A stretch of DNA of 64,000 nucleotides from Candidatus Bathyarchaeia archaeon (GTDB lineage Archaea > Thermoproteota > Bathyarchaeia > Bathyarchaeales > DTEX01): positions 36,667-100,666 of the forward strand of contig JAWCEH010000003.1 of assembly GCA_038859955.1 (NCBI GenBank), read 5' to 3'. The notes under the pieces were generated by a model. That model was not told where the DNA came from and did not search any database. It saw nothing but the letters and a program-made list of their open reading frames with translations. How positions within the stretch are numbered: the stretch's first letter is position 1; the number at the start of each line of letters is the position of its first letter. This document shows positions 2,700 to 43,360 of this stretch, piece after piece. The position numbers were made by a program, and so were the translations under genes.

Positions 2700-3992
2700 G
2701 TGATTTACGTGGCTAAAATAGTATTTATTGGCGCTGGAAGCGTCGTTTTTGCCAGCCGTCTACTCACAGATATTATTTACCATCCAGAGCTTAGAGACTC
2801 GACTGTTGCCTTAATGGACATCGATGCTGAGCGTCTTGAGTTAATAAGCAAGTTTGCACGAGTGGTAGCTTCAAAGTACGCACCCAACATGAAGATTGAG
2901 TCTACGCTTAACCGCAGGGAGGCATTAAAGGATGCCGACTTTGTGGTTATCATGATTCAAGTTGGCGGGTTAGAGGCATTTGAGATTGACATAAACATTC
3001 CCTTAAAGTATGGCGTAAACCAGGAGGTTGGGGACACTATCGGTCCAGGCGGCGTTTTCCGCGGTCTTAGAACTATACCAGTCTTGCTGGATATATGCTA
3101 CGATATGGAGGATCTTTGTCCAGACGCTCTGCTAATTAACTATGCTAACCCGATGGCGATTAATTGCTGGGCTATGAATAAAGCGACGAAGATAAAGAAT
3201 GTCGGTCTCTGTCATAGCGTTCAGGGAACAGCAATGCAGCTAGCAAACTACGTTAATCTCCCCTACGAAGACATTTATTACTGGGTTGCCGGAATAAATC
3301 ATCAGGCTTTCTTCCTGGAATTTAAGTATAAGGATAGAGATGCCTACCCGCTTCTCTGGGAGGCCATGAAAAAGAAGGAAATTTACGAGAAAGATAAGGT
3401 TCGATTCGAAATGATGAAATACCTAGGATACTTTATAACGGAGTCAAGCCACCACCTAGGCGAATACGTACCATACTTCAGAACAACCGAGGAGAGACGA
3501 AAAAAGTATTGCGAACCAAGGTGGTTCTATCTTGAAATATGTAAGGAAGCCTGGAAACCTCATTTCGAGCGAGTAAAGAAACAGATAAGCGGCGAGATAC
3601 CTATTGAGCTAAGTAGATCACACGAGTATGGCGTAGACATAATATACTCGATGGAAACAGGCAAACCTTGCCGAATAAACGGTAATGTTGAAAACAAGTG
3701 GCTGATAACAAATCTACCATATGGATGCTGTGTTGAAGTTCCATGTTTTGTCGATAAAGGAGGTATACATCCATGTCACGTCGGCGACTTACCGTCTCAA
3801 TGCGCAGCTCTCAATAGAACAAATATTAATGTTCAAGAGATGGCTGTTAAGGCGGCTCTAGAAAAAGACAGGACCGCAGCCCTGCAGGCTATAATGTTTG
3901 ATCCGCTAACGTCGGCTATCCTAACGCCTAGAGACATTGAAATGATGGTTAATGAAATGTTCGAGGCTGAAGCAAAATGGATTCCATTTTAG
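2700..3992 (+). CDS. melA: GH4 NAD+-dependent alpha-galactosidase (MelA-like)
   Basis: IGAGS NAD-binding motif, GDTIGPGG, NYANP, GLCHS, GINH. Confidence 0.85.
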   Translation: MIYVAKIVFIGAGSVVFASRLLTDIIYHPELRDSTVALMDIDAERLELISKFARVVASKYAPNMKIESTLNRREALKDADFVVIMIQVGGLEAFEIDINIPLKYGVNQEVGDTIGPGGVFRGLRTIPVLLDICYDMEDLCPDALLINYANPMAINCWAMNKATKIKNVGLCHSVQGTAMQLANYVNLPYEDIYYWVAGINHQAFFLEFKYKDRDAYPLLWEAMKKKEIYEKDKVRFEMMKYLGYFITESSHHLGEYVPYFRTTEERRKKYCEPRWFYLEICKEAWKPHFERVKKQISGEIPIELSRSHEYGVDIIYSMETGKPCRINGNVENKWLITNLPYGCCVEVPCFVDKGGIHPCHVGDLPSQCAALNRTNINVQEMAVKAALEKDRTAALQAIMFDPLTSAILTPRDIEMMVNEMFEAEAKWIPF

Positions 3993-9626: not shown

Positions 9627-11906
9627 TCACTCGATTGATACTTCGCTGAAGAAGTTATGTAAGGCTGATAGAACTCTCGTTTCTCCGACAACTTCGAATT
9701 TACCATTTAGCCTTATATCCTCTGAGGAGCTTCCGATCATAACTTCATACTCGCCCGGTTCAACTACCAGTCTCATATGGCGATCATAGAAGGCAAGTTG
9801 ATCCATGAAGAGCGTGAACTTCACTTTCTTTTTCTCTCCAGGTTCAAGTGTTACTCTCTTAAAGCCCTTTAGCTCCTTTATAGGTCTAGAAACCGATGCA
9901 ACTGGATCACGAATGTATAATTGTACAACTTCATCTCCCCTCATCTCGCCAACATTCTTGATCTCAAAGGTTATTGAGACTTTGCCAGCTGGACCAAGCT
10001 TCTCTGGCGCTATCTCCAGAGATGAATACTCAAATCTTGTATAGCTTAACCCGTGTCCAAATGGGAAAAGCGGCTTGGCGTCCATGAAGACGTAATCTCT
10101 GAAGGATGATGCTCTCCTACTGTAGTATACTGGTATTTGACCAGTATCCTGGGGGATGCTTACTGGCAGTTTGCCTCCAGGATTATAATCGCCAAATAGA
10201 ACGTCTGCCACAGCGTTTCCACCCTCTTCACCTGGGAACCAAGTCTCAATTATTGCCGAGGCATTCTCTACAGCCCACTTTATTGACAATGGTCTGCCAT
10301 TCACAAGGACTAGTACGAGTGGCTTACCCAGTTCTTTTAGCGCTCTGAGGAGTTCCTCCTGAACTCCCGGTAACGAAAGGCTTGACTGATCCCTTCCTTC
10401 ACCGGTTACGGCTGGAAGACGGAACATTCCGGATCTTTCGCCCACAACGGCTACTATAACATCCGACTTTGAAGCGGCATCTAAAGCGTCTCTGAATCCC
10501 TCTTTTGATGGATCATATATATCGCAACCCCTAGCGAAGTGGATTACCGTTTCAGGCGAAACTCTGCTTTTAATAGCCTCTAATATGCTGATTATTCTAA
10601 CAGCGTCTTCTTTACAGTTCAGGTGTAAAGTGTAACTGTAGTCGCCTAAAAGCCCCCTTGTAGTGTCAGCGTTGGGTCCTATAACCGCTATCGCTTTTAA
10701 ATCTTTTCTTAGGGGTAAGATTCCATCGTTTTTAAGAAGAACTATTGATTCCCTGGCAGCCTTTAGAGCTAAAATTCTATCCTCAGGCGTATCAAAAGCG
10801 TTTGCTGCGGCTTTGACATCAACGTAGGGATTATCAAAGAGTCCTAGAAGGATCTTAACCTTAAGAACTCTGGAAACAGCTTCGTTTATTAACGCCTCCG
10901 GGATGGTTCCCTCTTCAACGGCTTCAAGTAATGGTTTACCATAACATCTTATTATTGGTAGTTCTATGTCTATGCCCGCCTCTATTGCTTGGACAGCAGC
11001 CTCCTTCTCGTCAGCTGCAACATGATGGAATGTTTTAAGCATTTCTATTGCGCCGTAATCTGAGACAACATACCCTTTGAACCCCCACTTATACCTAAGA
11101 GTTTCAGTTAAAAGTTCCCTGGAGGATGCGCATGGTATACCATCAATGTCGTGGTAAGCATTCATAAGAGAGTAGGCGCCAGCCTCCCTTATAGCAGCCT
11201 CAAATGGAAATAGAAATACTTCCCTAAACTCTCTAGGAGAAACATGGACTGGCGCACAGTTTCTTCCGCCCTCAGGAAAACCGTGAGCTGCGAAATGTTT
11301 CGGCGTGGCAACAACACCAGAGGATAAAGAGTCTCCCTGAAGTCCCCTAATATACGCCACACCCATGCTTGCAACTAGATACTGGTCTTCCCCGAGAGTT
11401 TCCTCGGTTCTACCCCACCTAGGATCCCTAACGACGTCTAAAACTGGTGCAAGCCCTTGATGTGCTCCAATAGCCCTCATCTGCCTCCTGATGGCTGCTG
11501 TAACATTTTGGACGAGACTCGGATCCCATGTGCTTGCCAAACCGATTGCTTGCGGGAATGTTGTTGCGCCATAAGCCATTAAGCCGCTTAAACACTCCTC
11601 GTGTATTATCGCGGGTATGCCAAGCCTTGTCTCCTCAACCAGAAACCTCTGAATGTCGTTGGCTATAATAGCAATTTTAGCTGGTTCCCTGGGAGAATCT
11701 GGACTACCGGCCAACCTAGTTATCTGTCCAACGCCCTTGCCAATAGTATTCAAGGCTTTTTCACGCGAAAACCTCCCGCCCTCCAGAAGCTCAGATGCTG
11801 GAACAGAACCTAATTGCGCAACCTTCTCCTCAAGAGTCATCTTACCAATCAAGCTTTTAACTTTAAGTTCTAGATCGATTGAATCCATGAAGATCCCCAA
11901 AATCAT
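9627..11906 (-). CDS. GH3 beta-glucosidase/beta-xylosidase with Fn3 domain
   Basis: TLEEK, WGRTEET, KHF, nucleophile VVSDY, LLKN, PFGHGLSYT. Confidence 0.93.
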   Translation of the reverse strand: MILGIFMDSIDLELKVKSLIGKMTLEEKVAQLGSVPASELLEGGRFSREKALNTIGKGVGQITRLAGSPDSPREPAKIAIIANDIQRFLVEETRLGIPAIIHEECLSGLMAYGATTFPQAIGLASTWDPSLVQNVTAAIRRQMRAIGAHQGLAPVLDVVRDPRWGRTEETLGEDQYLVASMGVAYIRGLQGDSLSSGVVATPKHFAAHGFPEGGRNCAPVHVSPREFREVFLFPFEAAIREAGAYSLMNAYHDIDGIPCASSRELLTETLRYKWGFKGYVVSDYGAIEMLKTFHHVAADEKEAAVQAIEAGIDIELPIIRCYGKPLLEAVEEGTIPEALINEAVSRVLKVKILLGLFDNPYVDVKAAANAFDTPEDRILALKAARESIVLLKNDGILPLRKDLKAIAVIGPNADTTRGLLGDYSYTLHLNCKEDAVRIISILEAIKSRVSPETVIHFARGCDIYDPSKEGFRDALDAASKSDVIVAVVGERSGMFRLPAVTGEGRDQSSLSLPGVQEELLRALKELGKPLVLVLVNGRPLSIKWAVENASAIIETWFPGEEGGNAVADVLFGDYNPGGKLPVSIPQDTGQIPVYYSRRASSFRDYVFMDAKPLFPFGHGLSYTRFEYSSLEIAPEKLGPAGKVSITFEIKNVGEMRGDEVVQLYIRDPVASVSRPIKELKGFKRVTLEPGEKKKVKFTLFMDQLAFYDRHMRLVVEPGEYEVMIGSSSEDIRLNGKFEVVGETRVLSALHNFFSEVSIE

Positions 11907-14776: not shown

Positions 14777-16009
14777 TTAGTATTTTAGTATAAGCCATAA
14801 AGACCCCTCAGCGGGCTTCATTGAATTAACTTTGATAAATGGTGCGGGATTATCCAGCGTTATCTTGCCGCAGTTTTCTGGCATTTCTAGACATGTAGCC
14901 ACGTAATCTTCCGAGTTTATTAAGGAAGTAGCTTCGCACATTTCTATCGAAACCTTTGTACGGTTTGCTCCGCTATAAATCAATAAAGCTTTTTTCGCGG
15001 GGCCAGTCCAATACCATTTTCCTGGCAGTTCTCTCTGGCTTTGCACAAAAACCCTATCTTTGAGAACACCATAATTTCTTGGATCAAAAATGGAGTAGTC
15101 TACGTAAACCGCGTAAATCTCATGAACATACCCTTCTCTTCCAGTCTCTCTTCTAGTTGACCAGGTATCTCTAAATGACGCAAATAATATTTTGGGATGG
15201 CCATCCGGTTCAGTCGTATAATGAGGATGCCCAACTTGCGTAAACAAGTCGTCCACCATGAGGTTTGGCAGAATATCTCCTTCTAACAGACCTATCACCG
15301 GTATTCCGCCCTTTGGATCAAGACCCTTAACGTCGCTGAGAGGCGGTCCCATGAACATCTTTAAAACCCATTTACCAAACTCATCAGACTCCGTTATAAC
15401 AGATATTCTGGGCATTAAAAGAAAGTCCAATACGTCATTTCCGCCACCATGCCAAGCAGCTACTCCATAATCTTCCACTCTCGCTCGCTCAAAATCATCC
15501 ACATCCTTAATAGATAGAAGTTTTATTTTCTCTCCGGATGGTATTGATGCTACGGCATCATGGAGATAACCATAAGCTCCAATAGGTTTAAATGGAACGC
15601 CGTGATCGCCTACGCCTTCTAGAATCCGCTTAAAACCAAGCTTATTCCAGCTGGAATCGAACCAGAATACATAGGCTTCTCTATCTTGTGTAACGGTCAC
15701 TATGAACTCGTCTCTCACGGGATTATATATGCCCCTGACAGCGTTCATCGTATAGGTTCCAGGAATCACTCCGGAGGGTAGGATCTTCTTAATCCTATTC
15801 ACATCTATGCTCAAATCTTTCTCTATGGGTGCAACGGCTCCCTCACGTTTCAATCCAACCGGGTCCTTCCAACCAGTAAATAGAAGCCACTTCTCACCAG
15901 TCAAACTGTTAAATATTATATAAGGGGTTCCAACGCCGCCAGAAAAATCTGGAAAATCTCTCTTCAATTCTTGCGGTCTAAGCACAGGTATTACTTTTCC
16001 AAACTGCAT
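14777..16009 (-). CDS. Hypothetical protein, possibly beta-propeller glycoside hydrolase-like
   Basis: 410-aa ORF with RBS (GGGAGGG); beta-rich, repeated P(Y/H)-aromatic and LF motifs; no family recognised. Confidence 0.5.
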   Translation of the reverse strand: MQFGKVIPVLRPQELKRDFPDFSGGVGTPYIIFNSLTGEKWLLFTGWKDPVGLKREGAVAPIEKDLSIDVNRIKKILPSGVIPGTYTMNAVRGIYNPVRDEFIVTVTQDREAYVFWFDSSWNKLGFKRILEGVGDHGVPFKPIGAYGYLHDAVASIPSGEKIKLLSIKDVDDFERARVEDYGVAAWHGGGNDVLDFLLMPRISVITESDEFGKWVLKMFMGPPLSDVKGLDPKGGIPVIGLLEGDILPNLMVDDLFTQVGHPHYTTEPDGHPKILFASFRDTWSTRRETGREGYVHEIYAVYVDYSIFDPRNYGVLKDRVFVQSQRELPGKWYWTGPAKKALLIYSGANRTKVSIEMCEATSLINSEDYVATCLEMPENCGKITLDNPAPFIKVNSMKPAEGSLWLILKY

Positions 16010-16274
16010 TACAATCCCTCCCTACATAAACAAATTTACGTGTAGAATTTAAAAGTCTTCTAGATAGATGGTTTAGAAACTTCTCAAGGAGGCATAAAGA
16101 TTGCAAATGACTTCCCCAAAACAGGAGTGATGCACGTTCTCCTCTAAAAGCGGCTAAATTAAGAGATAACCACTGATGAAAATACTTCTTCCCAAATTAT
16201 GTAAGAGAGAACCCCAGAATTCTCCAGAGATTTATATCTCTGTTTTCATGATTTACATGTGATTTAGAGTCCTG

Positions 16275-16640
16275 GTGGTGAGTTTACTGGAAATTAGCAT
16301 TAAGCCCACTAAAAAGATTATTATTTTAGGCCTAGATCAAAGAGAACCGGAAAATATCGGCTTCTGCGCTGTAACGTTTGGCGCAGGGCGTCTCTTTTGG
16401 GTTGATGGCTACATTTTATGCTTAGAAGTTTATGAAAAGTCACTTGAATATGAAATTGAGAAAGGCGAATTTTATATAAGCCACTTATGCTATGCAAATT
16501 TTCCAAAGTACAATAAAATTTTGGAGATTGAGAAGGGAACCCAAATACCGATAGTAAACGTTTCAGACATGAGAATCTATAGGGAAATAATTAAGGCTAT
16601 ATTAAACTCTAAATCCGAAGAGCAGCGGAAAACATCATGA
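16275..16640 (+). CDS. Conserved hypothetical protein
   Basis: 121 aa with normal composition; LFWVDG and IPIVNVS motifs recall small TACK hypothetical proteins. Confidence 0.6.
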   Translation: MVSLLEISIKPTKKIIILGLDQREPENIGFCAVTFGAGRLFWVDGYILCLEVYEKSLEYEIEKGEFYISHLCYANFPKYNKILEIEKGTQIPIVNVSDMRIYREIIKAILNSKSEEQRKTS

Positions 16641-16973
16641 AAATATTTTGCTTCTTAACCAACCAAAAGGATTCGAGGTGTATTCGTATTTTCAAGATTG
16701 GGCCATAATTCCAAAGGATTTTTCTCTTCCTTTATACTTTTAGATCTTTAGATTTTTAGGCTTCCTTTGACATGTCAAATTTTTCTTACAGCGATTGAAT
16801 GAAAATTTTCAATTAAATCAAGTATCGGCCTGAATTAAAATATATTGTAATTTAAAGGGTAAGTAATTTCCGGGTTCATCAAAAATTAAGCATAAATGTA
16901 CGCCTACGCAAAACTTAAATAACTCGGTTAGGAGCTTAACTATTGTCTTAACATTGAGGGGCTTGTAACACCG

Positions 16974-19900
16974 GTGGTTTGGTTGAGAAAAAGTTTCCAT
17001 GAATCCGGTGTAGTAATAATTATTTTGCTGTTACTAGTTGCGGCGTCTTCTATACCAATTGGTAAGGTGAGTACAGCGGAATTAAATGTTTCTCAAGGCG
17101 TTGAAGTTCCAACTACGCCGCGGGGCTTTAACATAGTTATTAATAACATTAACATGACAAATATAATGGAGCATGTAAAATTCCTTTCAAGTAAATCAAG
17201 ATTTACTGGTTATCCGGGGTTTTTTGAAGCTGCTCAGTACATAGAGTCCAAGTTTAAGGAATATGGGCTTCAGCCATACGGTGAGAACGGAACATACTTT
17301 GAGTATTTTGATATTACTGTTCCAATTGATCATGGTTCCTCAATATCTTTGGGAGATGACAAAGTAATAACAGCCTATATGCTATATCCTAATTATATCA
17401 ACCCCTGCCCCTACGCAAGTCCAGAAGAAGGTGACACATTAATATACTTAGGAAAAGGCGAATACAAAGATTTTAAGGGCTTAGATATCAGGGGTAAGTT
17501 TGTACTTATGGATTTTTCTTCAAGATGGAATTTTTATCAAGCAATAATTGGTGGTGCTAAGGGAGTAATTTTTGTACCCGAAGATCCTGAGTTAATAATT
17601 CGAACTGAGGCCGAACAAAAGGAAGTTTTAATTCCCATATTGTTTCCAAGACTTTATGTAAGATTTGATGATGGTGGCGAAGAGCTAATTAAATTAGCAA
17701 AAGAGAAAGGCTCCGAAGGAGTTAAAGTCCATATAAACGCAAATATGAGCTGGGAAAGTATACGGGTTCCTAACATTGTTGGCTACATTAAGGGTAAAGA
17801 TGACGTTTTATCTAAACAGATAATTGTTATTTCAGCATATTATGACTCATGGTCCATAGTTCCTGCATTGTCTTATGGCGCAACAGACTCTCTAGGTGTA
17901 GCGGAACTGCTTGAAATAGCCAGATTCCTATCTACGCATACTCCCAAGAGATCCGTCCTTATAGTTGCCCTTGCAGGTCATTATCAAGGTTTATGGGGCG
18001 CAAGAGAGTTTGTTGAAAAACGCTTCCCGCATCTACAGAGTGAAATCATCGCATTTGCTGGCATGGATTTATCGAGCGGTTCAACTCAAATAGGCGTTTA
18101 CGCTACTGGCTCAGCCTATCCATACCAGCGACCAGATATACTCTACAATACTAGGTATAGCTGGCTTGTAAATCAATTCTTTCAGCAATACCTTATGGAG
18201 ATGAGAATGGTCCTAGGAACCAGCTATGGTGAAAACTTCGTTGATGGAATATTAGGTAGCCATCCACCCTACATAGGTACGGTTAGACCATATGAACCTA
18301 GAGTTTACGGCTACTTTGGCCAGGTTGGAGCCACAAGCTACCCATATTATTACTCATTCACATATCTCTTTGATTCTGATCCATTTGTTCTAGCTGTGTA
18401 CGGCTGTGGCTTCACATACCACACTTCAGACGATGTTAGGTTATATCAGAGAACTCCAGCGGATACATGGGAGAAAGTAAACTTTGAAAATCTACATCAT
18501 CAGATCATGTTTATTCATTGCACGTTATGGGGTCTCTTAAATGAGAGTAGCTTAAGGCTTACCCCAACAAAATCACGGTTCAGCGATGATTGGGGTTATG
18601 TAACTCTTACAATCAAAGTTTCCGAATACAACCTGCTTACAAGCTGGTATGATCCATTCAACTCAACTAGGCATCCTGAAAGCTGGAATGATGTTATAGT
18701 GGTTTATTATACGGGTGGAGGAACTGGCGCCTCGGGAATAAATATCGTGACTAAAATAAATAAGAATGGCGAAGCGATCATTCATGGCTTAAAGCCATAT
18801 CAAACAGGATTTGTCGATGCATTTGTTGTTGATAGGAAGACAGGTAAGATAACATGGGCCACTGACCTTGGAGTTTGGCAAGCTCCAGGAGGAAAATCTG
18901 TTCCCCTCACTTCGCATCCGCATGAGAAGATAATATCAATTTTTCCATGCGCAAGTATTTCGGTAATTTACGCGTTTAATCCGTCAGACTTTAGACTTAT
19001 TCGGGGGGTTATAATTAATCATGCTACTGCACACGGTTTAATGATAAGACAGAACGCTATTTCCTCAGATATGTTCTATATGGCCTTCGTTATGCCAGAT
19101 ACTCCAACAGAAATAATCCTCACTATGGGAGAAAGATTGCCAGTAGCCGTTCTGAACGATGCTGACCCGTCAAATCCGAATGGAAAAGGCTACATTCTTA
19201 AGCAGGGAGATATGCTGATTTTTGGACCTAACGAAATTATTAGAAACATGAGAACGATTGTGCTAAATAGATACAATAAACTTTATGGCTATTATACTTA
19301 TACGCCCACCACACAACTATTCTATAGTTTTGTTTCAAAATATCTAAGTCTTTGGGATTCATCCTATGAGAAAAATGAAGTTAATAAGTTGCTTGGTTAT
19401 GGCTATTTTGCGTGGACATTTCTTTTGGGTCTATATGGGTCAGTCATGGATTTAACATGGCAAGTTATATTATCACTATCCGTTATCTTCACAATTACAA
19501 TTCCATTCGCTTTAATTGCTGAGAGATTAATTTTCGGTTTCCAAGGCAAGAAAAGGTTTCTTGCCATAGTGATTCTGGCCTTCGTATCAAACCTCATCTT
19601 CTCCTTCTTCCATCCAGGCTTTATAATAGCGAATAGTTCTCCCTTAGTTTTAGTATCAAACTGTTTGCTGATTATTCTGGCCCCGCTTATCCTATTAGTC
19701 ATTAATGAAACACAATCAAGCATCAAAAGCCTAAGGGAAAAGGTAAGAGGTGGTGCACACTTCACTGAAATAAGTCGATCTGGTCTCTTTGCATCATCTA
19801 TGAGTATGGGCATAGAGAACATGAAAAAACGAAAGTTCAGGACTCTTCTAACCCTCCTATCACTGGTGTTATTAGTGTTCGGCATGGTTTCATTATCATC

Positions 19901-21539
19901 AGTTACGATAACTCCCCAATTGATAAGCGGTGTTCAAAGTACAGCTATGCCATCAAGCTTCTCTGGCATAATAGTTAGGGCAACGCCTTGGACTCCCCTA
20001 AATGAGGGAACATATTTCATATTAAAGTCCAGTTACAGTGATGTAGCCGACGTTGTTCCAAGAAGCTTTTTCTATCCTCCGCCTCAGCCGCCGCGCGTAA
20101 CTGTTGGGGCTGCACTGCCATATATTGTATTCTCTCCGAAGATGGAAACCCAGGTATATGGTATGTTAGTCTTATCCCATGAAGAACCCAAAGTCTCAAA
20201 TATTGACGAGCTTCTTGTATTAACAAATCCACCCGGCCGCTGGTTCCTTAAAGATGACATCTTCGCCGTGATATTACCGGATAAAGTAGCTCAAAGTTTA
20301 TCTAAAGAGTTGGGTAGAGATATAGTACCAGGTTCGAAGTTAAACTTATGGGGTTTAACTTTAACGGTTGTAGGACTAGTTGACTCTGAAAAACTTGACG
20401 TCTTCTATAATCCTGACGGAGAAAAAATAACCCCCATAGATCCATCTTCACCAACGACCGCTGTAACCCCTAACCACTTTTACTCAACTAACGTAATCAT
20501 TATCCCCTATTCTCTATTCTCAAGACTGGTTTATCCAACACCATTATCAATGATAGTTATTAAACCTGCTAATAAAACCGTAGAAAATCTTCTACTTAAG
20601 GAGCTCCCATTCCAGACATCCTATCGAATTTACATAGCTGAAAAAGGCGAAGTAGGCTATTACCTGCTCCAGAGACAATGGTTAGGGATGCTTGGATATC
20701 AGTACCTATTAATTCCAATGGCAATAGTCGCGTTTACGATATTAAACTTAATGTTAGGTTTAGTCTACGAAAGAACAAGGGAGATTGCTATTTATAATGC
20801 TATAGGTATGTCGCCACTCCATATATCGCTAAGTTTTATCGTTGAAGCTATTTCACATGCATTACCAGCCATATTTGCAGGCTACCTCGCGGGGATAATC
20901 GTAACTGCAATACTAATAATTCTAGGAGTATATCCGCAGGATTTATACCCCAACTTCTCATCTTACACGGCTCTAATAGCTCTTTTAATAGGCTTTGCTG
21001 TCACTTCTCTTTCAGCGGTTTATCCATCATTATTGGCGGCTAAGCTCGCGGTTCCATCCCGTGTACGTAGATGGCAAAAATCGGTAGCTAAACCTAAAGG
21101 AGACATATGGGAGTTAACGATACCAATAGTCGTTAATACAAAAGAGGAAGTTCTCGGCATCTTCCAGTTTATAAAAGAGTATCTTAGCTTCTCAATGGAG
21201 AGAGAAAGCCTCTTTGCAGCTGAAAAAGTAAGCGTCGAAGAAATCGAAAAAGATGGAGGAGCATTAGAATTGAGACTAACCGCTGACTGCAGAGTGGCCC
21301 CCTATGACTTGGGCATAAAGAGCGACATTATTATAGATGCTGAAAGACTGGACAAGGATTCACCGTTCCTATTCAAGTTAGTTATCCGGAGAACAGCGGG
21401 TTATGCCACGACATGGAGGACCTCATGCCCATACGTTGCGGATGAAGTTAGAAAGCAAATCTTAATATGGAGAACAATATCCTCGGAAGAGAGAAGGAGG
21501 TATATTGAGCTTGCAAGAAGAACAGAGTTCTCAGGATAA
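16974..21539 (+). CDS. M28-peptidase-like (PA insert) ectodomain fused to FtsX/MacB-type permease
   Basis: N-terminal hydrophobic segment; SRFTGYPG, NIVG, SAYYDS, GATD.LGVAELLEIAR, YHTSDD; C-terminal GIENMKKRKFRTLLT and VYERTREIAIYNAIG FtsX motifs with several TM helices. Confidence 0.8.
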   Translation: MVWLRKSFHESGVVIIILLLLVAASSIPIGKVSTAELNVSQGVEVPTTPRGFNIVINNINMTNIMEHVKFLSSKSRFTGYPGFFEAAQYIESKFKEYGLQPYGENGTYFEYFDITVPIDHGSSISLGDDKVITAYMLYPNYINPCPYASPEEGDTLIYLGKGEYKDFKGLDIRGKFVLMDFSSRWNFYQAIIGGAKGVIFVPEDPELIIRTEAEQKEVLIPILFPRLYVRFDDGGEELIKLAKEKGSEGVKVHINANMSWESIRVPNIVGYIKGKDDVLSKQIIVISAYYDSWSIVPALSYGATDSLGVAELLEIARFLSTHTPKRSVLIVALAGHYQGLWGAREFVEKRFPHLQSEIIAFAGMDLSSGSTQIGVYATGSAYPYQRPDILYNTRYSWLVNQFFQQYLMEMRMVLGTSYGENFVDGILGSHPPYIGTVRPYEPRVYGYFGQVGATSYPYYYSFTYLFDSDPFVLAVYGCGFTYHTSDDVRLYQRTPADTWEKVNFENLHHQIMFIHCTLWGLLNESSLRLTPTKSRFSDDWGYVTLTIKVSEYNLLTSWYDPFNSTRHPESWNDVIVVYYTGGGTGASGINIVTKINKNGEAIIHGLKPYQTGFVDAFVVDRKTGKITWATDLGVWQAPGGKSVPLTSHPHEKIISIFPCASISVIYAFNPSDFRLIRGVIINHATAHGLMIRQNAISSDMFYMAFVMPDTPTEIILTMGERLPVAVLNDADPSNPNGKGYILKQGDMLIFGPNEIIRNMRTIVLNRYNKLYGYYTYTPTTQLFYSFVSKYLSLWDSSYEKNEVNKLLGYGYFAWTFLLGLYGSVMDLTWQVILSLSVIFTITIPFALIAERLIFGFQGKKRFLAIVILAFVSNLIFSFFHPGFIIANSSPLVLVSNCLLIILAPLILLVINETQSSIKSLREKVRGGAHFTEISRSGLFASSMSMGIENMKKRKFRTLLTLLSLVLLVFGMVSLSSVTITPQLISGVQSTAMPSSFSGIIVRATPWTPLNEGTYFILKSSYSDVADVVPRSFFYPPPQPPRVTVGAALPYIVFSPKMETQVYGMLVLSHEEPKVSNIDELLVLTNPPGRWFLKDDIFAVILPDKVAQSLSKELGRDIVPGSKLNLWGLTLTVVGLVDSEKLDVFYNPDGEKITPIDPSSPTTAVTPNHFYSTNVIIIPYSLFSRLVYPTPLSMIVIKPANKTVENLLLKELPFQTSYRIYIAEKGEVGYYLLQRQWLGMLGYQYLLIPMAIVAFTILNLMLGLVYERTREIAIYNAIGMSPLHISLSFIVEAISHALPAIFAGYLAGIIVTAILIILGVYPQDLYPNFSSYTALIALLIGFAVTSLSAVYPSLLAAKLAVPSRVRRWQKSVAKPKGDIWELTIPIVVNTKEEVLGIFQFIKEYLSFSMERESLFAAEKVSVEEIEKDGGALELRLTADCRVAPYDLGIKSDIIIDAERLDKDSPFLFKLVIRRTAGYATTWRTSCPYVADEVRKQILIWRTISSEERRRYIELARRTEFSG

Positions 21540-23523
21540 AGGAGAGCCCAAGTTTAAAAATAATTATCAAGGCGAAGAAACATTTAGGGCCCCTCAAAAA
21601 GCCCTAACATGGAGGGTATATTTAGCTTTCCTTTTTGCCACCTTTCTTATCCAGCCAGCCTTCATATATTATAATTTAATTACTAACCAAACCCTTCCTC
21701 TAGCTACATGGATTCCAATACTATTATGGACGGAACTAGCAAACCTCCTTAGATCAAGGCTATATAAACAGGAGATTTTCCTGCTAGTTGCCTTCCAGTC
21801 AATATCGCTTGCATACGCTTTTTTCGCCATCAACTTGGTTAGAAATGTCTATTATTCTTATAGTGAACCAGCAATATACTTTGGCATAGTTGAGTACATT
21901 CCAAGATGGTTCGTTCCGAGAGGGCAAGATTTGATGGAGATTCTAAATAGCTCCTTCTTCTTTCTTCATGCATCTTGGCTCATCCCAATAGGTCTGCAGA
22001 TATTAGTTCTTCTACTAGGCTTAGTAACAGAACTTGTAATCGGCTACTTAAGTTATCAAGTATTTGTCGTAAGTGAGAAACTTGAGTTCCCAGCGGCTAG
22101 GGCACAGGTCGCAACTGTGGAAACGTTAGTTGAAAGAAGCCCTAGCCTAATAAGGCCTCTTTTTCTTTCGGCGCTCGCCGGAATGATTGTTCATTTAGTT
22201 GGAAAATTCTTACCTTTCATGATTGGGCCATTCGCAGTCGGCGGACTGACAATATACACTTATACAATGCCATACTTTGACATAACACCATACTTAGATA
22301 ATATACTCCCTGGAGCCGCCTTCATTATACCTCTCGACCCGGTTTTTTATGTTCCGGGCTTCCTTCTCCCAATTAGAACAGCTCTAATACAATTTATTGG
22401 CGCATTTGCCCTTTATTTTATCGGCGGACGCATAGTCACAATGCTTAATTTATGGCCTCCTGAAAGCCAGTGGACTACGGGATGGGGCTATTGGGCGCTA
22501 CAATATAGGTCACTTCTATATTTCTTCGTTAGCTTCATAATAGGTTTAAGCTTTGCAGCTATGATAGTCCCCTTAGCGTTAAATCCTAAACCGCTAACCC
22601 GAGGTGTTCAGGCTCTAAGAAAATCTATGGGAGCTAGGAAGGGCCTATTTTCGCCTAAAATGCTATTGACCACTTATATTGGTACATCGCTTGGTCTAGT
22701 CGCAATAATCTGGGCATTAACTGGCTTTGAGTTTCCAGTCTGGATACTCTTGTTGTTTGTTGTCGGAGGAACCTTCTTCGCGAATTATATCGCAACAGCC
22801 TCGGCTGGTGTAACTTTTCTCGGAATGAATATACCCTATTTAAGAGAGTTCGCGATATATTACAGCGGTTACACAAAAAGAGACATATGGTTTGCGCCTC
22901 TACCTCTTTCAATATCCGGATCAATAGGATACATAGGTCCAGCCTCAACAATAATGGGAGTCCCAATAGGCGGCTCAACGTTTGCTCAAGGCTTGCTTCA
23001 AGCTGATCTACTTGGGGTTAGACATGGTGAATATATTAAGGCGTTCCTCATACTGCTAGCCTTAACGATATTTAGCAGCTTCTTTTACACAATAATATTC
23101 TGGTTTGTTGCTCGCATACCATCAAGCGCTTACCCAGCAACAGTAGTCGGATGGCCGGTTGACGCTCTTAATTGGGCTAGAATGCAAGTCTGGGTTTGGT
23201 CGGGTTACCTTTTCAATTCAACATGGATTATACTTGGCTTAGGTATAGGCTCGGCGATAGCCGCTGTTAGCAGTTTTCTTAAGATTCCATACTTTCTGCC
23301 AATAATGATTTCTGGTGCCCTTTGGGGAATACCATTCGTTTTTGCTCAGTTAATTGCATCAATAATAGGCGAGAAGTTTATTGGGCCCTCATTTGGTTTC
23401 ACAAACTGGATGCGCTATAGGCCACTAATAGTTATGGGATATACAATTGGTGACGGGTTAATGGAAACAATTAGGGCCATAGCTATCTTAGCAACAAAAT
23501 CCGGCTGGCTTCTTCCATTCTAA
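21505..23523 (+). CDS. OPT-superfamily-like membrane transporter
   Basis: About 16 TM segments; EKLEFPAA loop motif; overlaps the upstream gene end. Confidence 0.65.
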   Translation: MSLQEEQSSQDKGEPKFKNNYQGEETFRAPQKALTWRVYLAFLFATFLIQPAFIYYNLITNQTLPLATWIPILLWTELANLLRSRLYKQEIFLLVAFQSISLAYAFFAINLVRNVYYSYSEPAIYFGIVEYIPRWFVPRGQDLMEILNSSFFFLHASWLIPIGLQILVLLLGLVTELVIGYLSYQVFVVSEKLEFPAARAQVATVETLVERSPSLIRPLFLSALAGMIVHLVGKFLPFMIGPFAVGGLTIYTYTMPYFDITPYLDNILPGAAFIIPLDPVFYVPGFLLPIRTALIQFIGAFALYFIGGRIVTMLNLWPPESQWTTGWGYWALQYRSLLYFFVSFIIGLSFAAMIVPLALNPKPLTRGVQALRKSMGARKGLFSPKMLLTTYIGTSLGLVAIIWALTGFEFPVWILLLFVVGGTFFANYIATASAGVTFLGMNIPYLREFAIYYSGYTKRDIWFAPLPLSISGSIGYIGPASTIMGVPIGGSTFAQGLLQADLLGVRHGEYIKAFLILLALTIFSSFFYTIIFWFVARIPSSAYPATVVGWPVDALNWARMQVWVWSGYLFNSTWIILGLGIGSAIAAVSSFLKIPYFLPIMISGALWGIPFVFAQLIASIIGEKFIGPSFGFTNWMRYRPLIVMGYTIGDGLMETIRAIAILATKSGWLLPF

Positions 23524-23755
23524 AAAGATTATCCTTTGTTCATTGAGCCCCTCTGGAGCGAACGCTAAAAAGCATACGCGGGCAAAGGTTATGTTGCTAT
23601 GAAACCCAATAGATACTCCAATGGAAAGGCTATTTTCCTTTATACATTTCACTAAAGTGGCATTAAATAATAAAAACTTCTTCACCTATAATCTGACGGC
23701 GTGCTAAAATGCTAGAGTAAATCTTATATTTTTAACGGAAACAATTATATCTGGG

Positions 23756-25789
23756 GTGCCGCGCTTGGGGGAAAAAGTTGCTAGCGAGGTTGTGGCCCCA
23801 CGTATATCCACAAAAACATGGATATACGTTATAGTTTACATGGCTATACTAACAGCAGTGATAACTCTTGAGACCCACTTCCTTCCAGCAGCATGGGGTA
23901 CTGGAGGAATAAACATCGGCCCGTCTGGACTTTTGCTTGCAGCAATAGGTCTGCCTTACGTTTTTTCATTCATAATGCTTTTGCTAATACAGTCTATGGG
24001 TATAAGAGTTGAAAGATCCACCTTCGCCCTATTTTACATAGCAACCGGGGTTGCTACCTGGTTCTCTGTCTTTAAGGGCTTCTACACAACTCCAGGCTCA
24101 CTCTTCAACATCCGCGTCTCAACAGCCGAGGTCCACGGATACGCACTACCATACTTCTGGATGCCATCAGCAGACGCAGTAAGAGGCTCATACTACAGAG
24201 GAAGCCTACACAACCTACTCGTAACATACGCCAGCGAATGGACACCAGTAATACTAAACTACATATACTGGTACATAGTGGCTATACTCTTCTTTATGGG
24301 CTGGGCTATAATCCTACGAAGACTATGGATAGACATAGAAGTACTACCATTCCCACACGCACAAGGCTGGGTGATTGGCGAGCTTGCCCTAACCGCCCAA
24401 GAGAAGAAGCCTAGCCGAGGGAGAAAAGTCTTTCTTATCTGTGGGATCCTAGGGTTAATATTCTATATTCCATATATGATATACTCCGCCTACCCAGGCC
24501 TACCAGACTTCTACGGCTGGCTAAAAGGCGCCTACTTCACAACATGGTCCACTGGGCACTACGAGCTCACACACGCCTTTCCATCGATAGCAAATTCTAT
24601 ATCAAATATGGTTGGCATCTCAACTGATCCTCTACGTTACGCGTACTTCTTCATAATTCCCTTAGATAGCCTACTATCTATGACTGTGGCAATATTCGGG
24701 GTTACAATAATACTACCTCAAATCTTAAGCTACTTCGGATACTACAGCGGATTATACGAGTACACATCTTGGTGCGGGTGGACAAAGTGGGGTATGATAT
24801 ACTACGGTGATCCATTGCACATAAAAGACTTCCAGCAGGGAATGATAGTTGGGATTCTAATATTTATGATCTTGATAAACTGGAAATACTTCGCGACAAC
24901 AATTAAACAAGCATTTACTCGACAAACTCCGGCAACCGAAGTTTCATATTCTTTAGGCTACATCTTCATAATAGTGGGCGCAATAGGGTTAATAGCGCTC
25001 TTCATAGCTTCAGGCGTTGAATTTGTGGATGCCGTGGTTGGTCTGCTGATAATATTCATGATTACAGTAGTTCTAGCAAGAATAAGATCCTATGCAGCGC
25101 ACATTTTACACGTTACGGGTGAAGGATACTTCAAGCCTCTTTGGGGTCCAACAATGCCTGCTGCACCTGAATTCCCAGCGGGAAAACTATTCATTGGAAC
25201 ACATGTTTGTAGATGGGGTGTTGGAACAGATACCTATGGACCCTATTACGTTTCGTTAATGGGTACTATGGACTACTTTAAGGTTGGTAGTATGGCTGGT
25301 TTGCATCCAAAACAGACATTCAAACTATGCCTAATAGGCGCAGTAATAGGCGCAATAATAGTAATACCACTAACATTCATAATATGGCACGCATTCGGAT
25401 TCATGGAGATGCCAGTAGCAAAAGAATGGGACTACTTCTGGGAAGGGGACGCTGGAACCTATAATGGAGTGCTTGGAATAAACTCGATTCACGGAGTTGC
25501 AGGAATAATATTTGCGGGCATACTTGCGCTTCTCAGAGCAAGATATATCTGGTGGCCGATAGAGCCATTAGGCTTCACACTGGGCTTGGATGTATGGATG
25601 CCTTGGTCTGGCACATTCGTTCCGCTGATAGTTTGGGTCGTCAAATACATAGTGATCAAGGTTGGTGGAAGAGAACTTTATGAAGAGATCGGTGTTCCCG
25701 CAGCTTTCGGAATAATAGCCGGAGAAATGCTGGGCATAATTTGCGTTAGCGCAATAAACATTATAAGATTCGTGATCTTCGGGGCCTAA
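23756..25789 (+). CDS. OPT/YSL-like transporter (DUF6785/DUF6784-type)
   Basis: Many TM segments; RRLWIDIEVLPFP, WWPIEPLG, K..VIKVGG.ELYE...P.AFG motifs. Confidence 0.7.
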   Translation: MPRLGEKVASEVVAPRISTKTWIYVIVYMAILTAVITLETHFLPAAWGTGGINIGPSGLLLAAIGLPYVFSFIMLLLIQSMGIRVERSTFALFYIATGVATWFSVFKGFYTTPGSLFNIRVSTAEVHGYALPYFWMPSADAVRGSYYRGSLHNLLVTYASEWTPVILNYIYWYIVAILFFMGWAIILRRLWIDIEVLPFPHAQGWVIGELALTAQEKKPSRGRKVFLICGILGLIFYIPYMIYSAYPGLPDFYGWLKGAYFTTWSTGHYELTHAFPSIANSISNMVGISTDPLRYAYFFIIPLDSLLSMTVAIFGVTIILPQILSYFGYYSGLYEYTSWCGWTKWGMIYYGDPLHIKDFQQGMIVGILIFMILINWKYFATTIKQAFTRQTPATEVSYSLGYIFIIVGAIGLIALFIASGVEFVDAVVGLLIIFMITVVLARIRSYAAHILHVTGEGYFKPLWGPTMPAAPEFPAGKLFIGTHVCRWGVGTDTYGPYYVSLMGTMDYFKVGSMAGLHPKQTFKLCLIGAVIGAIIVIPLTFIIWHAFGFMEMPVAKEWDYFWEGDAGTYNGVLGINSIHGVAGIIFAGILALLRARYIWWPIEPLGFTLGLDVWMPWSGTFVPLIVWVVKYIVIKVGGRELYEEIGVPAAFGIIAGEMLGIICVSAINIIRFVIFGA

Positions 25790-29231: not shown

Positions 29232-30038
29232 ATGGAGATAAAAGTTACCTTCTCAGAGGCTGTAAGTGCAATTAGAAGGGCTGAAAGTATTGAGCCAAAG
29301 ACGTCAATAGAGATCTCGGCGCTGAGATGGGAGATCTACGCGTCCCTACAAAACATTTTAGATGCGGTTTCGATGATTATAGCCGATCTAAACTTGAGGA
29401 AGCCCGGTTCATACGGTGATCTTGGTAAGATACTCCGCGAGGCTAACTTAATAGGTGAGGAAGCTGAAAACGTTATTAAAATGATCGCCGCGGCTAGAAA
29501 TATACTAGCCCACGCTTACCGAAGAATAAGCGCAGAAGACCTCCAAAGGATGAAGAGTGAGATTCTTCCGAGAGCCGAGGTAGTCATCAAAGATCTTCTT
29601 AGAATAGTTGAGCAGAGGAGTCTAGATCCTGAATCTGCGACAGGTTTTCTAGAGACGTTAATTCAGCCGCTTAAAAAGCATGGGGTTTTATTGGCTTACC
29701 TCTTTGGTTCTAGGGCTAGAGGTACTGCCAGAGTGGACAGCGACTATGATATAGCGGTTCTATTCTCTAGTGAGGAGTCCTCATTAATTGGAGAAATAAA
29801 CTTAGCAGTAGAATTGGCTAGCGCTCTTAACGAACCTGTAGACAAAGTTAACGTTGTCTCATTGAATAAGGCTGATTTAACGGTTAAGGCAAGGGTGCTA
29901 AAGGAGGGGTCGCTAATCTACTGTAGCGATGAGGAGTTTAAACGAAGATGGGAGCGGAAAACTTTAAGAGAGGTGCTGGACAACTCAGACTTATACGCAA
30001 TATACACAAAGAGAATACTGGGGTCCAATCGTAAATAA
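29232..30038 (+). CDS. HEPN (DUF86/HepT) RNase fused to MNT nucleotidyltransferase
   Basis: N-half RNILAHAY (RX4H-x-Y); C-half YLFGSRARG...DSDYDIAV. Confidence 0.85.
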   Translation: MEIKVTFSEAVSAIRRAESIEPKTSIEISALRWEIYASLQNILDAVSMIIADLNLRKPGSYGDLGKILREANLIGEEAENVIKMIAAARNILAHAYRRISAEDLQRMKSEILPRAEVVIKDLLRIVEQRSLDPESATGFLETLIQPLKKHGVLLAYLFGSRARGTARVDSDYDIAVLFSSEESSLIGEINLAVELASALNEPVDKVNVVSLNKADLTVKARVLKEGSLIYCSDEEFKRRWERKTLREVLDNSDLYAIYTKRILGSNRK

Positions 30039-41981: not shown

Positions 41982-42638
41982 ATGGTGGAGTGTATGTCAT
42001 CAAAGTTTACTAAGAGATGGGAGGAAGGCGAATTAAGCGGGCTTAAGGCTGCTTTAAGGCCATCTGAACCCTTGAAGACTAAGATTGAATTAGCCATTAG
42101 ACGCGTTGAGGCCCAAATACAATATATCGAGGGTACGCTAAGTCGCCTCAGCGAGAGAGACAAGTATTTATTCTCTAAGATAGTCGAGGCATACTCCAAG
42201 CATCAGATGCAGAGAGCTCGTGTTTTAGCAAATGAGCTCGCTGAGCTGAGGAAGATGGCTAACTTCATGATGAACGCTGAATTAGCATTGGAAAGAGTTG
42301 CACTAAGATTGAGGACGGTAACTCAGCTAGGTAATGTTGTATCAACGTTAGCTCCGGCTACGCAGGTTTTGCAGAGCGTTCGAACCGGGTTAAGCGGATT
42401 GTTGCCGAACGCTGAAAAAGAGCTCGGTCAAATTGGGTCGATGCTTAATGATTTAATCGTTGAAGCTGGTGAAGTTACTGGTGTGGCTCCGGACTTTGAG
42501 GTTGCCAGTGATGATGCGCAAAAGATCCTTAGTGAAGCAGCCTTGATAGCTGAGCAGCGAATGAAAGAGAAGTTCCCTGAGCTTCCATCTCTAAGATCAG
42601 CGGAGGAAACCGGTGAGGATTCAGGGTTCTCGGAGTGA
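41982..42638 (+). CDS. ESCRT-III/Snf7 (CdvB-like) paralog lacking wH domain
   Basis: Helical Snf7 pattern (LANELAELRK, LERVALRLRT, AQKILSEA) and Pro-rich FPELPS tail. Confidence 0.85.
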   Translation: MVECMSSKFTKRWEEGELSGLKAALRPSEPLKTKIELAIRRVEAQIQYIEGTLSRLSERDKYLFSKIVEAYSKHQMQRARVLANELAELRKMANFMMNAELALERVALRLRTVTQLGNVVSTLAPATQVLQSVRTGLSGLLPNAEKELGQIGSMLNDLIVEAGEVTGVAPDFEVASDDAQKILSEAALIAEQRMKEKFPELPSLRSAEETGEDSGFSE

Positions 42639-42651
42639 TTAAGGGAGGTGT

Positions 42652-43326
42652 ATGTTTTTGGAGACTGATATTTTTCCATCCCTGATTGGTAGGAGTTTAA
42701 AGGATGAGAATGGTAGGGAAATAGGCAAGATAGTATCTTTCATAATTGGTTCTTTAGGCGAGGTTAAAGAGGTTTTAGTGGAAAATAAAAGCGAAGAGTT
42801 GATCAGGTTCCCGGCTGAAAGACTGAGGGTCAGTCAGGAAGAAGTCTTTTTAGTTTCTGAGATCGAGAGACGCGTTGAGAAGTTATGCGGGATTTTCCCG
42901 ACGTTAGTGAGAAAGCGTGAAATTCTTGAATCTCTCTTCAAAAATAAGGAGATACTGCCTGAAATTTACGAGAGCTTAAGCGCCGACTTTGATAAATCCA
43001 TAAATGAGATGAAAGTTGAAGCCCAAAATCTCTTAAGTGATATTGAACGTCAGATTCAATTTCAAGAGAATTCTATTAAAATGCTTCATCTCGCTAGGAC
43101 ATTCCTTGAGATGGAGCATGGAATAGGCAATGTGAAGGATGATGCCTTCCGACAATCCCTACTGTCAATTCTCAGGGAGATAAAATATGCTTCCTATAGA
43201 AAAATGAACCTTCTAAAGATTAAGGAGAAAGTCTCTAGCATAACCATTCAAACGAGCGTTGACTTGGCAGTAAGCGATTATGTAAGTCAAAAACCAGTTA
43301 TAAATGTACGCATAACTAATGAATAG
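42652..43326 (+). CDS. cdvA: Cell division protein CdvA
   Basis: N-terminal PRC barrel (IGRSLKDENGREIGKIV), coiled coil, C-terminal beta peptide PVINVRI. Confidence 0.8.
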   Translation: MFLETDIFPSLIGRSLKDENGREIGKIVSFIIGSLGEVKEVLVENKSEELIRFPAERLRVSQEEVFLVSEIERRVEKLCGIFPTLVRKREILESLFKNKEILPEIYESLSADFDKSINEMKVEAQNLLSDIERQIQFQENSIKMLHLARTFLEMEHGIGNVKDDAFRQSLLSILREIKYASYRKMNLLKIKEKVSSITIQTSVDLAVSDYVSQKPVINVRITNE

Positions 43327-43360
43327 CCATGCGTTCTCTCAATAACGCGCGGGGTCTTTA

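Follow-up and report, generated by a model that had tools for sequence, protein, structure and literature searches.

A multi-copy three-gene membrane cassette of Thermoproteota with a giant MacB-type subunit and two OPT-fold permeases

Introduction

What does a giant MacB-type membrane protein do beside two permeases of the OPT fold, in a locus that holds no ABC ATPase? The question is raised by a stretch of 64,000 nucleotides (nt) of Bathyarchaeia DNA, called the window below, in which three large membrane genes (genes 1, 2 and 3) follow one another on the same strand, just upstream of a beta-galactosidase gene of glycoside hydrolase (GH) family 42 (gene 4). An earlier note on this DNA, made from the sequence alone, described an ATPase-free machine in which an M28-like ectodomain fused to an FtsX module would bind or trim a peptide or glycan, and a pair of OPT-like transporters would import it. 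The window proves to hold one copy of a multi-copy three-gene membrane module, or cassette, that is widespread in Thermoproteota. A pair of ATPases encoded elsewhere in the genome probably serves it in trans. Among the possible functions, a substrate-specific module for glycan capture and uptake, driven by that shared ATPase, fares best, at somewhat less than an even chance.

The host is a metagenome-assembled genome (MAG) of Bathyarchaeia, and the contig of the window (C3, 101 kb) carries archaeal genes around the cassette, among them L38e, S13/S15, a CCA-adding enzyme and a Cdv/ESCRT cluster. In a single-protein scan the three closest public loci were all from MAGs named 'Candidatus Bathyarchaeia archaeon', and hot-spring metagenomes of several studies hold DNA near-identical to the window.

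A cassette in many copies

Open reading frames (ORFs) and Pfam matches bear out the coordinates, lengths and domains given earlier for the three genes (Table 1), including the 35-nt overlap between the end of gene 1 and the start of gene 2. Relatives of gene 1 are numerous. They are full-length proteins of ~1450-1570 amino acids (aa) that combine M28 and FtsX domains, and their named sources are Thermoproteota, Thermofilaceae, Thermosphaera and Bathyarchaeia. By tblastn and ORF analysis, the assembly that contains the window (G000) has 18 loci in which a gene-1-like gene is paired with a gene-2-like gene. Sixteen of these pairs are directly adjacent, often overlapping, and two are split by 1-3 genes; a DUF6785-type gene (the type of gene 3) lies up- or downstream in at least 14 of the 18 loci, the others ending at contig edges. 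At ~9 kb per locus, cassettes make up ~5% of the 3.39-Mb assembly.

The copy number is to be read with the state of the assembly in mind. G000 comprises 233 contigs with 7% contamination, and genomes of the same genus measure 1.1-1.7 Mb. The orphan-ATPase locus described below occurs in it twice (C26 and C13) in ~95% identical copies, one of which is 100% identical to that of genome G009. Because the assembly is oversized relative to its congeners and this locus is doubled, the bin may merge two related strains, in which case 18 cassettes may overstate the number of copies per cell.

Beyond this genome, gene 1 was matched in 33 of 41 genomes (40 relatives plus G000). Gene 2 has relatives in 54 of 301 genomes of the phylum, concentrated in particular families (14 of 17, 8 of 8, 5 of 6 and 3 of 3 genomes). 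Among 20 loci of other families, picked by their gene-2 match, a gene-1-like neighbour is present in 17 and a DUF6785-like gene in 16. The exceptions are one lone gene 2 and two loci where genes 2 and 3 accompany a shorter FtsX protein of ~1060 aa. The joint occurrence of the three families, which the earlier note proposed to survey, is therefore seen within the genome and across families, and the arrangement of genes 1-3 is far beyond chance. Chance ORFs or pseudogenes, considered as an explanation of the three genes, are excluded by their conservation.

Several large proteins of 500-865 aa without a Pfam match lie in or beside other-family cassettes (L046:5445-8571 and 15242-17839; L047:6793-9886; L040:1746-4109; L052:1596-3665). 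These might be additional subunits, or glycan enzymes that have escaped recognition.

Membrane half and tail of the giant subunit

Gene 1 encodes, in order, a signal anchor, a pseudo-M28/PA ectodomain, a variable ectodomain, three transmembrane (TM) helices, a MacB-type module and a C-terminal cytoplasmic domain. Hydropathy places the helices much as the earlier note had them, about three followed by a MacB/FtsX module (Table 1). Pfam FtsX (PF02687) matches aa 1247-1358 (E 3e-13, 50.1 bits against a cut-off of 25.5), and NCBIfam gives weak LolC and MacB matches and nothing more. PF12704 is precomputed on many homologues of gene 1, the protein itself (P0001) falling below that match.

An AlphaFold2 model of aa 800-1521, built from a 27-row alignment (pLDDT 83), was compared with known structures by Foldseek. 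The matches are MacB (5lil, E 3e-12), LolCDE, HrtBA, YtrEF, YbbAP and BceAB, together with isolated periplasmic domains of MacB, LolE and YknZ; matches to isolated periplasmic domains include 3ftj (TMt 0.59) and 5f9q (TMt 0.62). By this model, the membrane half has the type VII ABC (MacB/LolC) fold. Two features of type VII permeases are present, namely the FtsX domain and a module of four TM helices whose first two enclose a large extracytoplasmic domain of the Porter/Sabre type. Within the cytoplasmic loop joining TM2 and TM3, residues R1267, G1278 and P1281, and E1291 close by, do not vary in any of the 27 aligned relatives, whose sequences otherwise share 25-45% identity. In MacB this loop contacts the ATPase, according to the accessible text of PMC5985334.

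The cytoplasmic tail of ~160-170 aa yielded neither a PDB sequence match nor a usable match in the ESM Atlas. With a profile of it, 1544 of 1.84 billion cluster representatives were recovered, 1345 at an E-value of at most 1e-10. The domain ends the protein in 150 of the 150 matches listed, which are mostly 1430-1570 aa long, with a minority of ~965-1222 aa and many short fragments.

A second FtsX/MacB-type family, of ~1000-1130 aa, lacks both the M28 ectodomain and an adjacent ATPase (Table 1). Some of its genes stand inside cassettes, between the gene-2-like and gene-3-like genes. Given the similar lengths (~965-1222 aa) among the profile matches, these mid-size proteins may share the tail domain of gene 1, and they might form heterodimers with the giant subunit.

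Two OPT-fold permeases

Gene 2 falls in no Pfam or NCBIfam family and has no match to PF03169 (OPT), DUF6785 or DUF6784. Its AlphaFold2 model (38-row alignment, pLDDT 86.6, pTM 0.88) has barley Yellow Stripe 1 (HvYS1; 7wst/7wsr) as its sole significant Foldseek matches, at E 8e-8 and TM-scores of 0.64/0.70. Gene 3 matches DUF6784 (E 1.5e-12, 48.0 bits against a cut-off of 26.4) and DUF6785 (E 3.5e-9, 36.2 bits against 25.0). It also spans nearly the whole of the Pfam OPT profile (PF03169) at 23.5 bits, under the 25.8 cut-off, and its homologues bear the NCBI names 'OPT/YSL family transporter' or 'DUF6785 family protein'. An hhalign comparison finds the two families homologous over 539 columns (probability 99.95%, E 1.3e-38). 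Gene 3 is counted as having the OPT fold because it is homologous to the modelled gene 2. By the model and the profile comparison the two are remote paralogues and both are OPT/Yellow-Stripe-fold permeases, as the earlier note had surmised from the letters.

Sequence searches of PDB with the gene-2 and gene-3 family profiles returned nothing meaningful. Longer proteins fusing the gene-2 domain to another domain were not found, which is weak evidence, and the literature search turned up no paper on DUF6785 or DUF6784. Three stand-alone DUF6785-type genes without a giant subunit occur on contig C24 of the genome (L035:3549-5546 and two more), amid GH20, GHL6, a PIG-L deacetylase, a GH109-like oxidoreductase and a DegT aminotransferase. 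A close gene 3 paralogue (70-74% identity) on C43 (L036:2368-4508, minus strand) is split into overlapping ORFs of 319 and 402 aa, by a frameshift, pseudogene formation or assembly error.

A candidate ATPase pair in trans

Known type VII ABC permeases have their cognate ATPase fused or adjacent. The cassette has neither, and its candidates lie in trans only. As the earlier note had it, the locus holds no ABC ATPase: the assembly gives 127 matches to PF00005, and none is on C3 or on any other contig of its own cassettes. Across its 28 FtsX-domain genes, just one, a canonical 421-aa LolC/E-like permease on C14, adjoins an ATPase; the giant and mid-size FtsX genes have none beside them. The same genome encodes orphan ATPases of the LolD/MacB/FtsE type that lack membrane-protein neighbours. 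A pair of such genes lies on C26 (C26:4664-5404 and C26:5984-6652), with products of 246 and 222 aa that share 73% identity; C13 has the pair as well, and C158 carries one more copy. The models that these ATPases match best are LolD, MacB and FtsE, and they keep intact motifs, with invariant residues, at Walker A and B, the Q-loop, the signature and the H-loop.

This ATPase co-occurs with the cassette. In the set of 40 relatives, 25 genomes have the FtsX-fusion family (E<1e-20), and 21 of these also have an orthologue of the ATPase (at least 68% identity); the 15 without the family have none. Among the 301 genomes of the phylum, 54 have both, 16 have the ATPase alone, none has the cassette alone and 231 have neither, a pattern that spans more than 12 families; Fisher values for this co-occurrence overstate its significance because related genomes are not independent. 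The link runs in one direction. In three lineages the genes also lie close together: the ATPase pair is ~3.2 kb from a cassette in family f19 (L050), a single ATPase is ~5 kb from a gene 2/gene 3 pair in f41 (L051/L055), and an ATPase is ~2 kb from a cassette in genome G121 (L054). A complex prediction for aa 929-1521 of gene 1 with the 246-aa orphan ATPase, both with alignments, gave a score of 0.18 (mark 0.32), which weighs neither for binding nor against it.

Because of the co-occurrence, the proximity in three lineages and the invariant coupling loop, the absence of an ATPase probably holds for the locus and not for the system, which would use a shared pair in trans. As a statement about the mechanism, the absence of an ATPase in the earlier note is not supported.

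A mechanism of capture and import that dispenses with ATP would make the MacB-like module a scaffold or passive gate, replace the nucleotide-binding domain with the C-terminal domain and run the OPT pair on proton-motive force. OPT transporters are secondary carriers, as this reading needs. It also draws on the lack of an ATPase on the genome's own cassette contigs and beside most of the 20 other loci, on the conserved cytoplasmic domain that ends every family member listed, and on four relatives that bear the family with no detectable orphan ATPase. It is nonetheless unlikely: all 54 cassette-bearing genomes of the phylum survey have the orphan ATPase type, which lies near the cassette in three lineages, and the TM2-TM3 loop, an ATPase contact in the MacB account of PMC5985334 as far as its accessible text goes, is invariant in all 27 sequences.

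Glycan context and the direction of transport

Carbohydrate enzymes flank or interrupt cassettes both in this genome and at the other loci. They comprise GH42, GH78, GH106, GH10-like, GH10, GH130, two GH57 and heparinase II/III-like genes. NamZ stands beside a cassette with a BadF-type kinase and a SIS (MurQ-like) protein, and a GHL6/GH42M protein sits between genes 1 and 2 of one cassette. A PL22-like lyase is found by a cassette with three GFO/IDH/MocA oxidoreductases and a transketolase, GH5 by one with a GlcNAc-2-epimerase-like protein, and GH18 with Amidase_2, AnmK and GHL10; CBM4_9, galactokinase, UxuA and three TrmB sugar regulators are also cassette neighbours. In the window, gene 4 matches GH42 (E 8e-137), GH42M and GH42C.

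Where these enzymes act bears on the direction of transport. Nineteen of 25 glycan enzymes by cassettes lack an N-terminal hydrophobic signal or anchor, so their substrates must be imported. The gene 4 protein, with no N-terminal hydrophobic segment or signal peptide, is one of the 19 and is likely the consumer, in the cytoplasm, of the imported substrate. Neighbours with signal anchors, which are secreted, are GH18, Amidase_2, GHL10, CBM4_9 and a beta-helix protein. Of 31 genes that immediately border the genome's own cassettes or interrupt them, in gene slots defined after seeing the data, 7 are GH or polysaccharide lyase genes; in 20 random 8-kb windows of the same genome, 5 of 147 are GH or carbohydrate esterase (CE) genes (one-sided p=0.001). 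The glycan link is real but moderate; the galactose-containing cargo suggested by the earlier note may apply to this copy.

Two RNA-Seq metatranscriptomes of a single study contain contigs near-identical to the window; these cover gene 1, the gene 1/2 junction (21245-21635) and gene 3, a hint of expression. Most of GH42 and some flanks have no cover, a gap that in contigs bears neither on expression nor on co-transcription with GH42.

The region around the cassette is glycan-enzyme-rich as a whole, with GH4 (window 2700-3992, plus strand) and GH3 (9627-11906, minus strand) 5-14 kb upstream. Farther along, an MFS_2 sugar transporter (minus strand) diverges from a GH116 glycosidase at 53348-57499, a conventional transporter-hydrolase pair, followed by a BadF-type kinase and an amidohydrolase (58835-61150).

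The opposite direction of transport would make the cassette an envelope or export machine. The giant subunit would extract, expel or activate something at the surface, as in S-layer or glycan remodelling or the control of surface hydrolases, and the OPT-fold proteins would deliver outward. In favour of it, the fold matches exporter, extractor or signalling systems only, type VII systems are presented as non-importing in published abstracts and in the accessible text of PMC5985334, and some neighbours are the secreted proteins listed above. As many as 18 paralogous copies are hard to square with a housekeeping envelope role, however, and the neighbouring enzymes are mostly catabolic and cytoplasmic, needing an importer, in a setting of TrmB sugar regulators, sugar kinases and sugar-acid enzymes that flank the cassettes. 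We regard export, too, as unlikely.

An ectodomain that probably binds

The M28 identity of the ectodomain is clear in sequence searches. Pfam Peptidase_M28 (PF04389) matches aa 267-376 of gene 1 (E 6e-13, 49.3 bits against a cut-off of 21.3). A profile of the ectodomain finds in PDB the PA-containing M28 aminopeptidase 2ek8 (E 4.7e-31), transferrin receptor 1 (E 1.6e-12), nicalin (E 2e-9), glutamate carboxypeptidase II and the PA domain of ZNRF3, which agrees with the M28 and PA assignment made earlier.

The residues of the active site tell otherwise. M28 enzymes bind zinc through His, Asp, Glu, Asp/Glu and His ligands and use the catalytic Glu of a Glu-Glu pair. From this set gene 1 keeps the bridging Asp alone. 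The Glu-Glu position is occupied by His-Tyr/Trp (H336-Y337 in gene 1); 98 of 101 relatives have the His, and none has Glu. At the first zinc histidine (Y289 in gene 1), 65 of the 101 relatives have Tyr, 23 have His and 8 have Asn, and a non-His residue (Q492/R493 in gene 1) is aligned with the last. Since the catalytic Glu-Glu and two zinc histidines are lost, the ectodomain probably binds rather than trims, and of the two activities that the earlier note offered, trimming falls away. Conservation extends to the replacing residues, H336 and [Y/W]337, which 98 of 101 relatives retain; this hints at a new site and not simple decay.

Conservation among the paralogues is uneven. Identity is highest in the M28/PA core (0.39-0.43) and falls to 0.26-0.29 over aa 526-800; the most variable parts are aa 401-800 and the MacB extracytoplasmic domain (0.25-0.33). 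Substrate specificity more likely sits in these variable regions than in the M28/PA core, and aa 526-800 are a candidate specificity determinant on this pattern. Possible tasks for the core are docking, to the permeases or the S-layer, and acting as a gating lid.

An active M28 aminopeptidase was tried as an explanation and is ruled out by the residue columns over the 101 relatives. A related reading would have the M28-like ectodomain work as an aminopeptidase with an unusual metal site, the OPT-fold proteins importing oligopeptides from peptides or glycopeptides. The M28 homology, the OPT family name and the conserved D291, D/E305 and H336, which could make a different metal site, speak for it. 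So do an Asparaginase_2 gene that flanks one cassette, on C83, and Amidase_2 and NamZ elsewhere, which point to peptide-bearing glycans. It is nevertheless quite improbable, with Glu missing from the Glu-Glu position in every one of the relatives, two zinc histidines replaced and no consistent company of peptidase or amino-acid catabolic genes.

A proposed mechanism

A BceAB-like sensor, in which the giant subunit would sense substrate flux or a surface ligand and signal to regulators, the OPT-fold proteins being the monitored transporters, would fit the BceAB structural match and the TrmB regulators near three cassettes, but no kinase or regulator is consistently adjacent and the close overlap between genes 1 and 2 speaks for stoichiometric subunits and not a sensor-target pair, which leaves this reading with very little probability.

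Glycan capture and uptake would proceed in four steps. The giant subunit would capture a specific extracellular glycan or glyco-conjugate fragment. The shared trans-encoded LolD/MacB-type ATPase pair would then power mechanotransmission through the MacB module, and the substrate would be handed on. The OPT-fold pair would take it across the membrane, and cytoplasmic glycosidases, here the adjacent GH42, would degrade it. The substrate would differ from one paralogous cassette to the next. The physical assembly of the three proteins, the direction of transport, the class of substrate and the use of the trans ATPases are all inferred.

Several points weigh against this reading. The characterised type VII ABC systems expel, extract or signal and do not import, as the accessible text of PMC5985334 presents them. 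Four genomes that are 93-95% complete (G011, G016, G018 and G022) have the family and no detected orthologue of the orphan ATPase, and G022 carries the closest orthologue of the window's cassette. Conversely, in 4 of 5 'ATPase-only' genomes checked, the C-terminal domain of the family was not detected. Counted by locus, a GH or CE gene occurs in 7 of 18 cassette loci and in 5 of 20 random windows (p=0.28, not significant), a weak association because the genome is rich in carbohydrate-active enzymes (CAZymes) throughout. At the other-family loci, only 4 of 43 flanking or inserted genes have a GH or carbohydrate-binding module Pfam match, although many are large and Pfam-less. Several of the genome's own cassettes lie beside unrelated genes (ribonucleotide reductase, radical SAM enzymes, an rRNA methylase). 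The RNA-library contigs only hint at cassette expression, and may reflect DNA carry-over. Finally, the best conserved part of the ectodomain is the M28/PA core and not a variable binding site, which suggests that the core has a common role and not a substrate-specific one.

Relation to known systems

The nearest relatives of gene 1 are the type VII ABC systems MacB, LolCDE, FtsEX, HrtBA, YtrEF, YbbAP-TesA and BceAB, with which it shares the four-helix module, the large TM1-TM2 extracytoplasmic domain, the FtsX domain and the conserved TM2-TM3 loop. Those systems are bacterial and export, extract or signal. Gene 1 differs by an added N-terminal ectodomain of ~800 aa, three TM helices and a C-terminal cytoplasmic domain of ~160 aa. 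The cassette differs in having no fused or adjacent ATPase, in its pairing with OPT-fold permeases, in its many paralogues per genome and in its catabolic gene context.

In the OPT/YSL superfamily (HvYS1; PF03169), gene 2 models onto HvYS1 and gene 3 has a sub-threshold OPT match. Compared with characterised OPTs, the sequence similarity of the pair is under the Pfam cut-off or absent, and two divergent paralogues stand together by a MacB-type protein. Transferrin receptor 1 and nicalin, which act as binding or scaffold modules, resemble the ectodomain in keeping the M28 fold and PA insert with loss of metal and catalytic residues, whereas the domain of gene 1 is fused to a MacB-type membrane module.

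Shared 'multitask' ATPases of the MsiK/MalK type serve several sugar importers, which are canonical type I systems with binding proteins. The likeness to the cassette lies in one ATPase locus for many permease loci without their own ATPase; the cassette candidates, however, are of the LolD/MacB type and form a pair of 73%-identical paralogues. The polysaccharide utilization loci of Bacteroidota hold multi-copy SusC/SusD capture-uptake sets beside glycoside hydrolases. Here the likeness is functional only, consisting of multi-copy capture-uptake sets by hydrolases and of energy transmitted to extracytoplasmic capture. The cassette proteins are unrelated to SusC/SusD, the archaeal host has no outer membrane and the CAZyme association is moderate. 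Pfam scans of 28, 81 and 124 neighbour proteins found none of the SusC, SusD or TonB-receptor families.

Each component belongs to a known superfamily, and their combination has no described counterpart in the literature searched. It unites a MacB-type protein bearing a pseudo-M28 ectodomain and a new tail, an obligatory OPT-fold pair, candidate ATPases in trans only and many paralogues. No paper describing the cassette was found, with supplementary tables a place where its genes may be listed as peptidases or transporters, and no relevant paper was found on the FtsX and M28 combination in archaea. In their accessible portions, a Tardisphaera paper mentions only ABC transporters and porters (PMC12542729), and two others mention M28 for other taxa only (PMC10116835, PMC9123169).

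It is possible, if doubtful, that the cassette represents a new hybrid transporter class, in which a type VII ABC mechanotransducer with a shared trans ATPase pair is physically coupled to an OPT-fold heterodimer and a dead-peptidase ectodomain captures extracellular polymers and passes them to the permease, as an archaeal counterpart of polysaccharide utilization systems.

Features of the locus and further observations

Table 1. Features of the cassette in the window and related genes elsewhere in the genome and at other loci. Positions are those of the window unless a contig or locus is named.
Feature	Position	Strand	Basis or remark
Gene 1 (P0001), giant subunit, 1521 aa	16974..21539	+	ORF
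N-terminal hydrophobic anchor or signal, aa 12-30	17007..17063	+	hydropathy score 2.63
M28/PA-like ectodomain without peptidase residues, aa 31-525	17064..18548	+	profile against PDB, residue columns, pairwise alignment
Variable ectodomain region, aa 526-800	18549..19373	+	no Pfam or PDB match
Three extra TM helices outside the MacB fold, aa 831-910	19464..19703	+	hydropathy; long helices in AlphaFold2 model
MacB/LolC-type module (predicted): TM1 aa 961-979, extracytoplasmic domain aa 980-1245, TM2-4 aa 1246-1349	19854..21020	+	AlphaFold2, Foldseek, Pfam, LolC 7arh by sequence
Cytoplasmic TM2-TM3 loop ERTREIAIYNAIGMSP, aa 1266-1281	20769..20816	+	site of MacB's major coupling helix
Family-specific C-terminal cytoplasmic alpha/beta domain, aa 1362-1521	21057..21536	+	AlphaFold2 secondary structure
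Gene 2 (P0002), predicted OPT/YSL-fold permease, 672 aa	21505..23523	+	ORF
Gene 3 (P0003), DUF6785/DUF6784 OPT-like permease, 677 aa	23756..25789	+	ORF
Gene 4, GH42 beta-galactosidase, 672 aa	25947..27965	+	Pfam; same strand, 157 nt 3' of gene 3
Mid-size FtsX/MacB-type genes	own genome C57 (L028:2960-6355), C4 (L022:3049-6084), C2, C10, C11, C78, C210; L042:6860-9898; L043:5969-8995; L051:1290-4508		

Elsewhere in the window, on the plus strand, a Cdv/ESCRT-III division cluster (41982-45345) comprises a Snf7-like gene, a CdvA-like gene, a Snf7 gene with a winged helix and a Vps4-type AAA ATPase with an MIT domain. A gene for a corrinoid (B12-binding) protein followed by three URO-D-like genes occupies 46221-51076 (plus strand); the latter are possible methyltransferases of a methyl-compound or methoxy-group pathway. 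An ORF of 268 aa (29232-30038, plus strand) fuses HepT-like RNase and Pol-beta/MNT nucleotidyltransferase domains, a pair of the toxin-antitoxin type. In one of the random control windows (C20:14893-22892; L103:745-4805, minus strand), a PAAR-motif protein lies by Amidase_2 and CarboxypepD_reg proteins, which is unexpected in an archaeon. This set might be part of a contractile-injection-like or cell-wall-attacking system.

Significance

Bathyarchaeia and their kin are abundant heterotrophs of sediments and hot springs, and their carbon acquisition is inferred almost wholly from annotation. Parts of the cassette currently carry the public labels 'FtsX-like permease', 'antimicrobial peptide transport permease', 'M28 family peptidase' and 'OPT/YSL family transporter', and the analysis suggests that these imply the wrong physiology. 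If the cassette is a hybrid importer, the automatic labels 'extracellular M28 peptidase' and 'oligopeptide transporter' would give a false picture of Bathyarchaeia as degraders of protein, over more than 1000 sequence clusters and up to ~18 substrate-specific copies per genome. Were it to serve glycan uptake, it would be the first type VII ABC system for import, and would give the OPT fold in archaea its first partner and its first role other than in peptides or metal chelates. It would also offer a handle for predicting substrate range from genomes. Should it do something else, the cassette would still be among the largest uncharacterised membrane families of its phylum.

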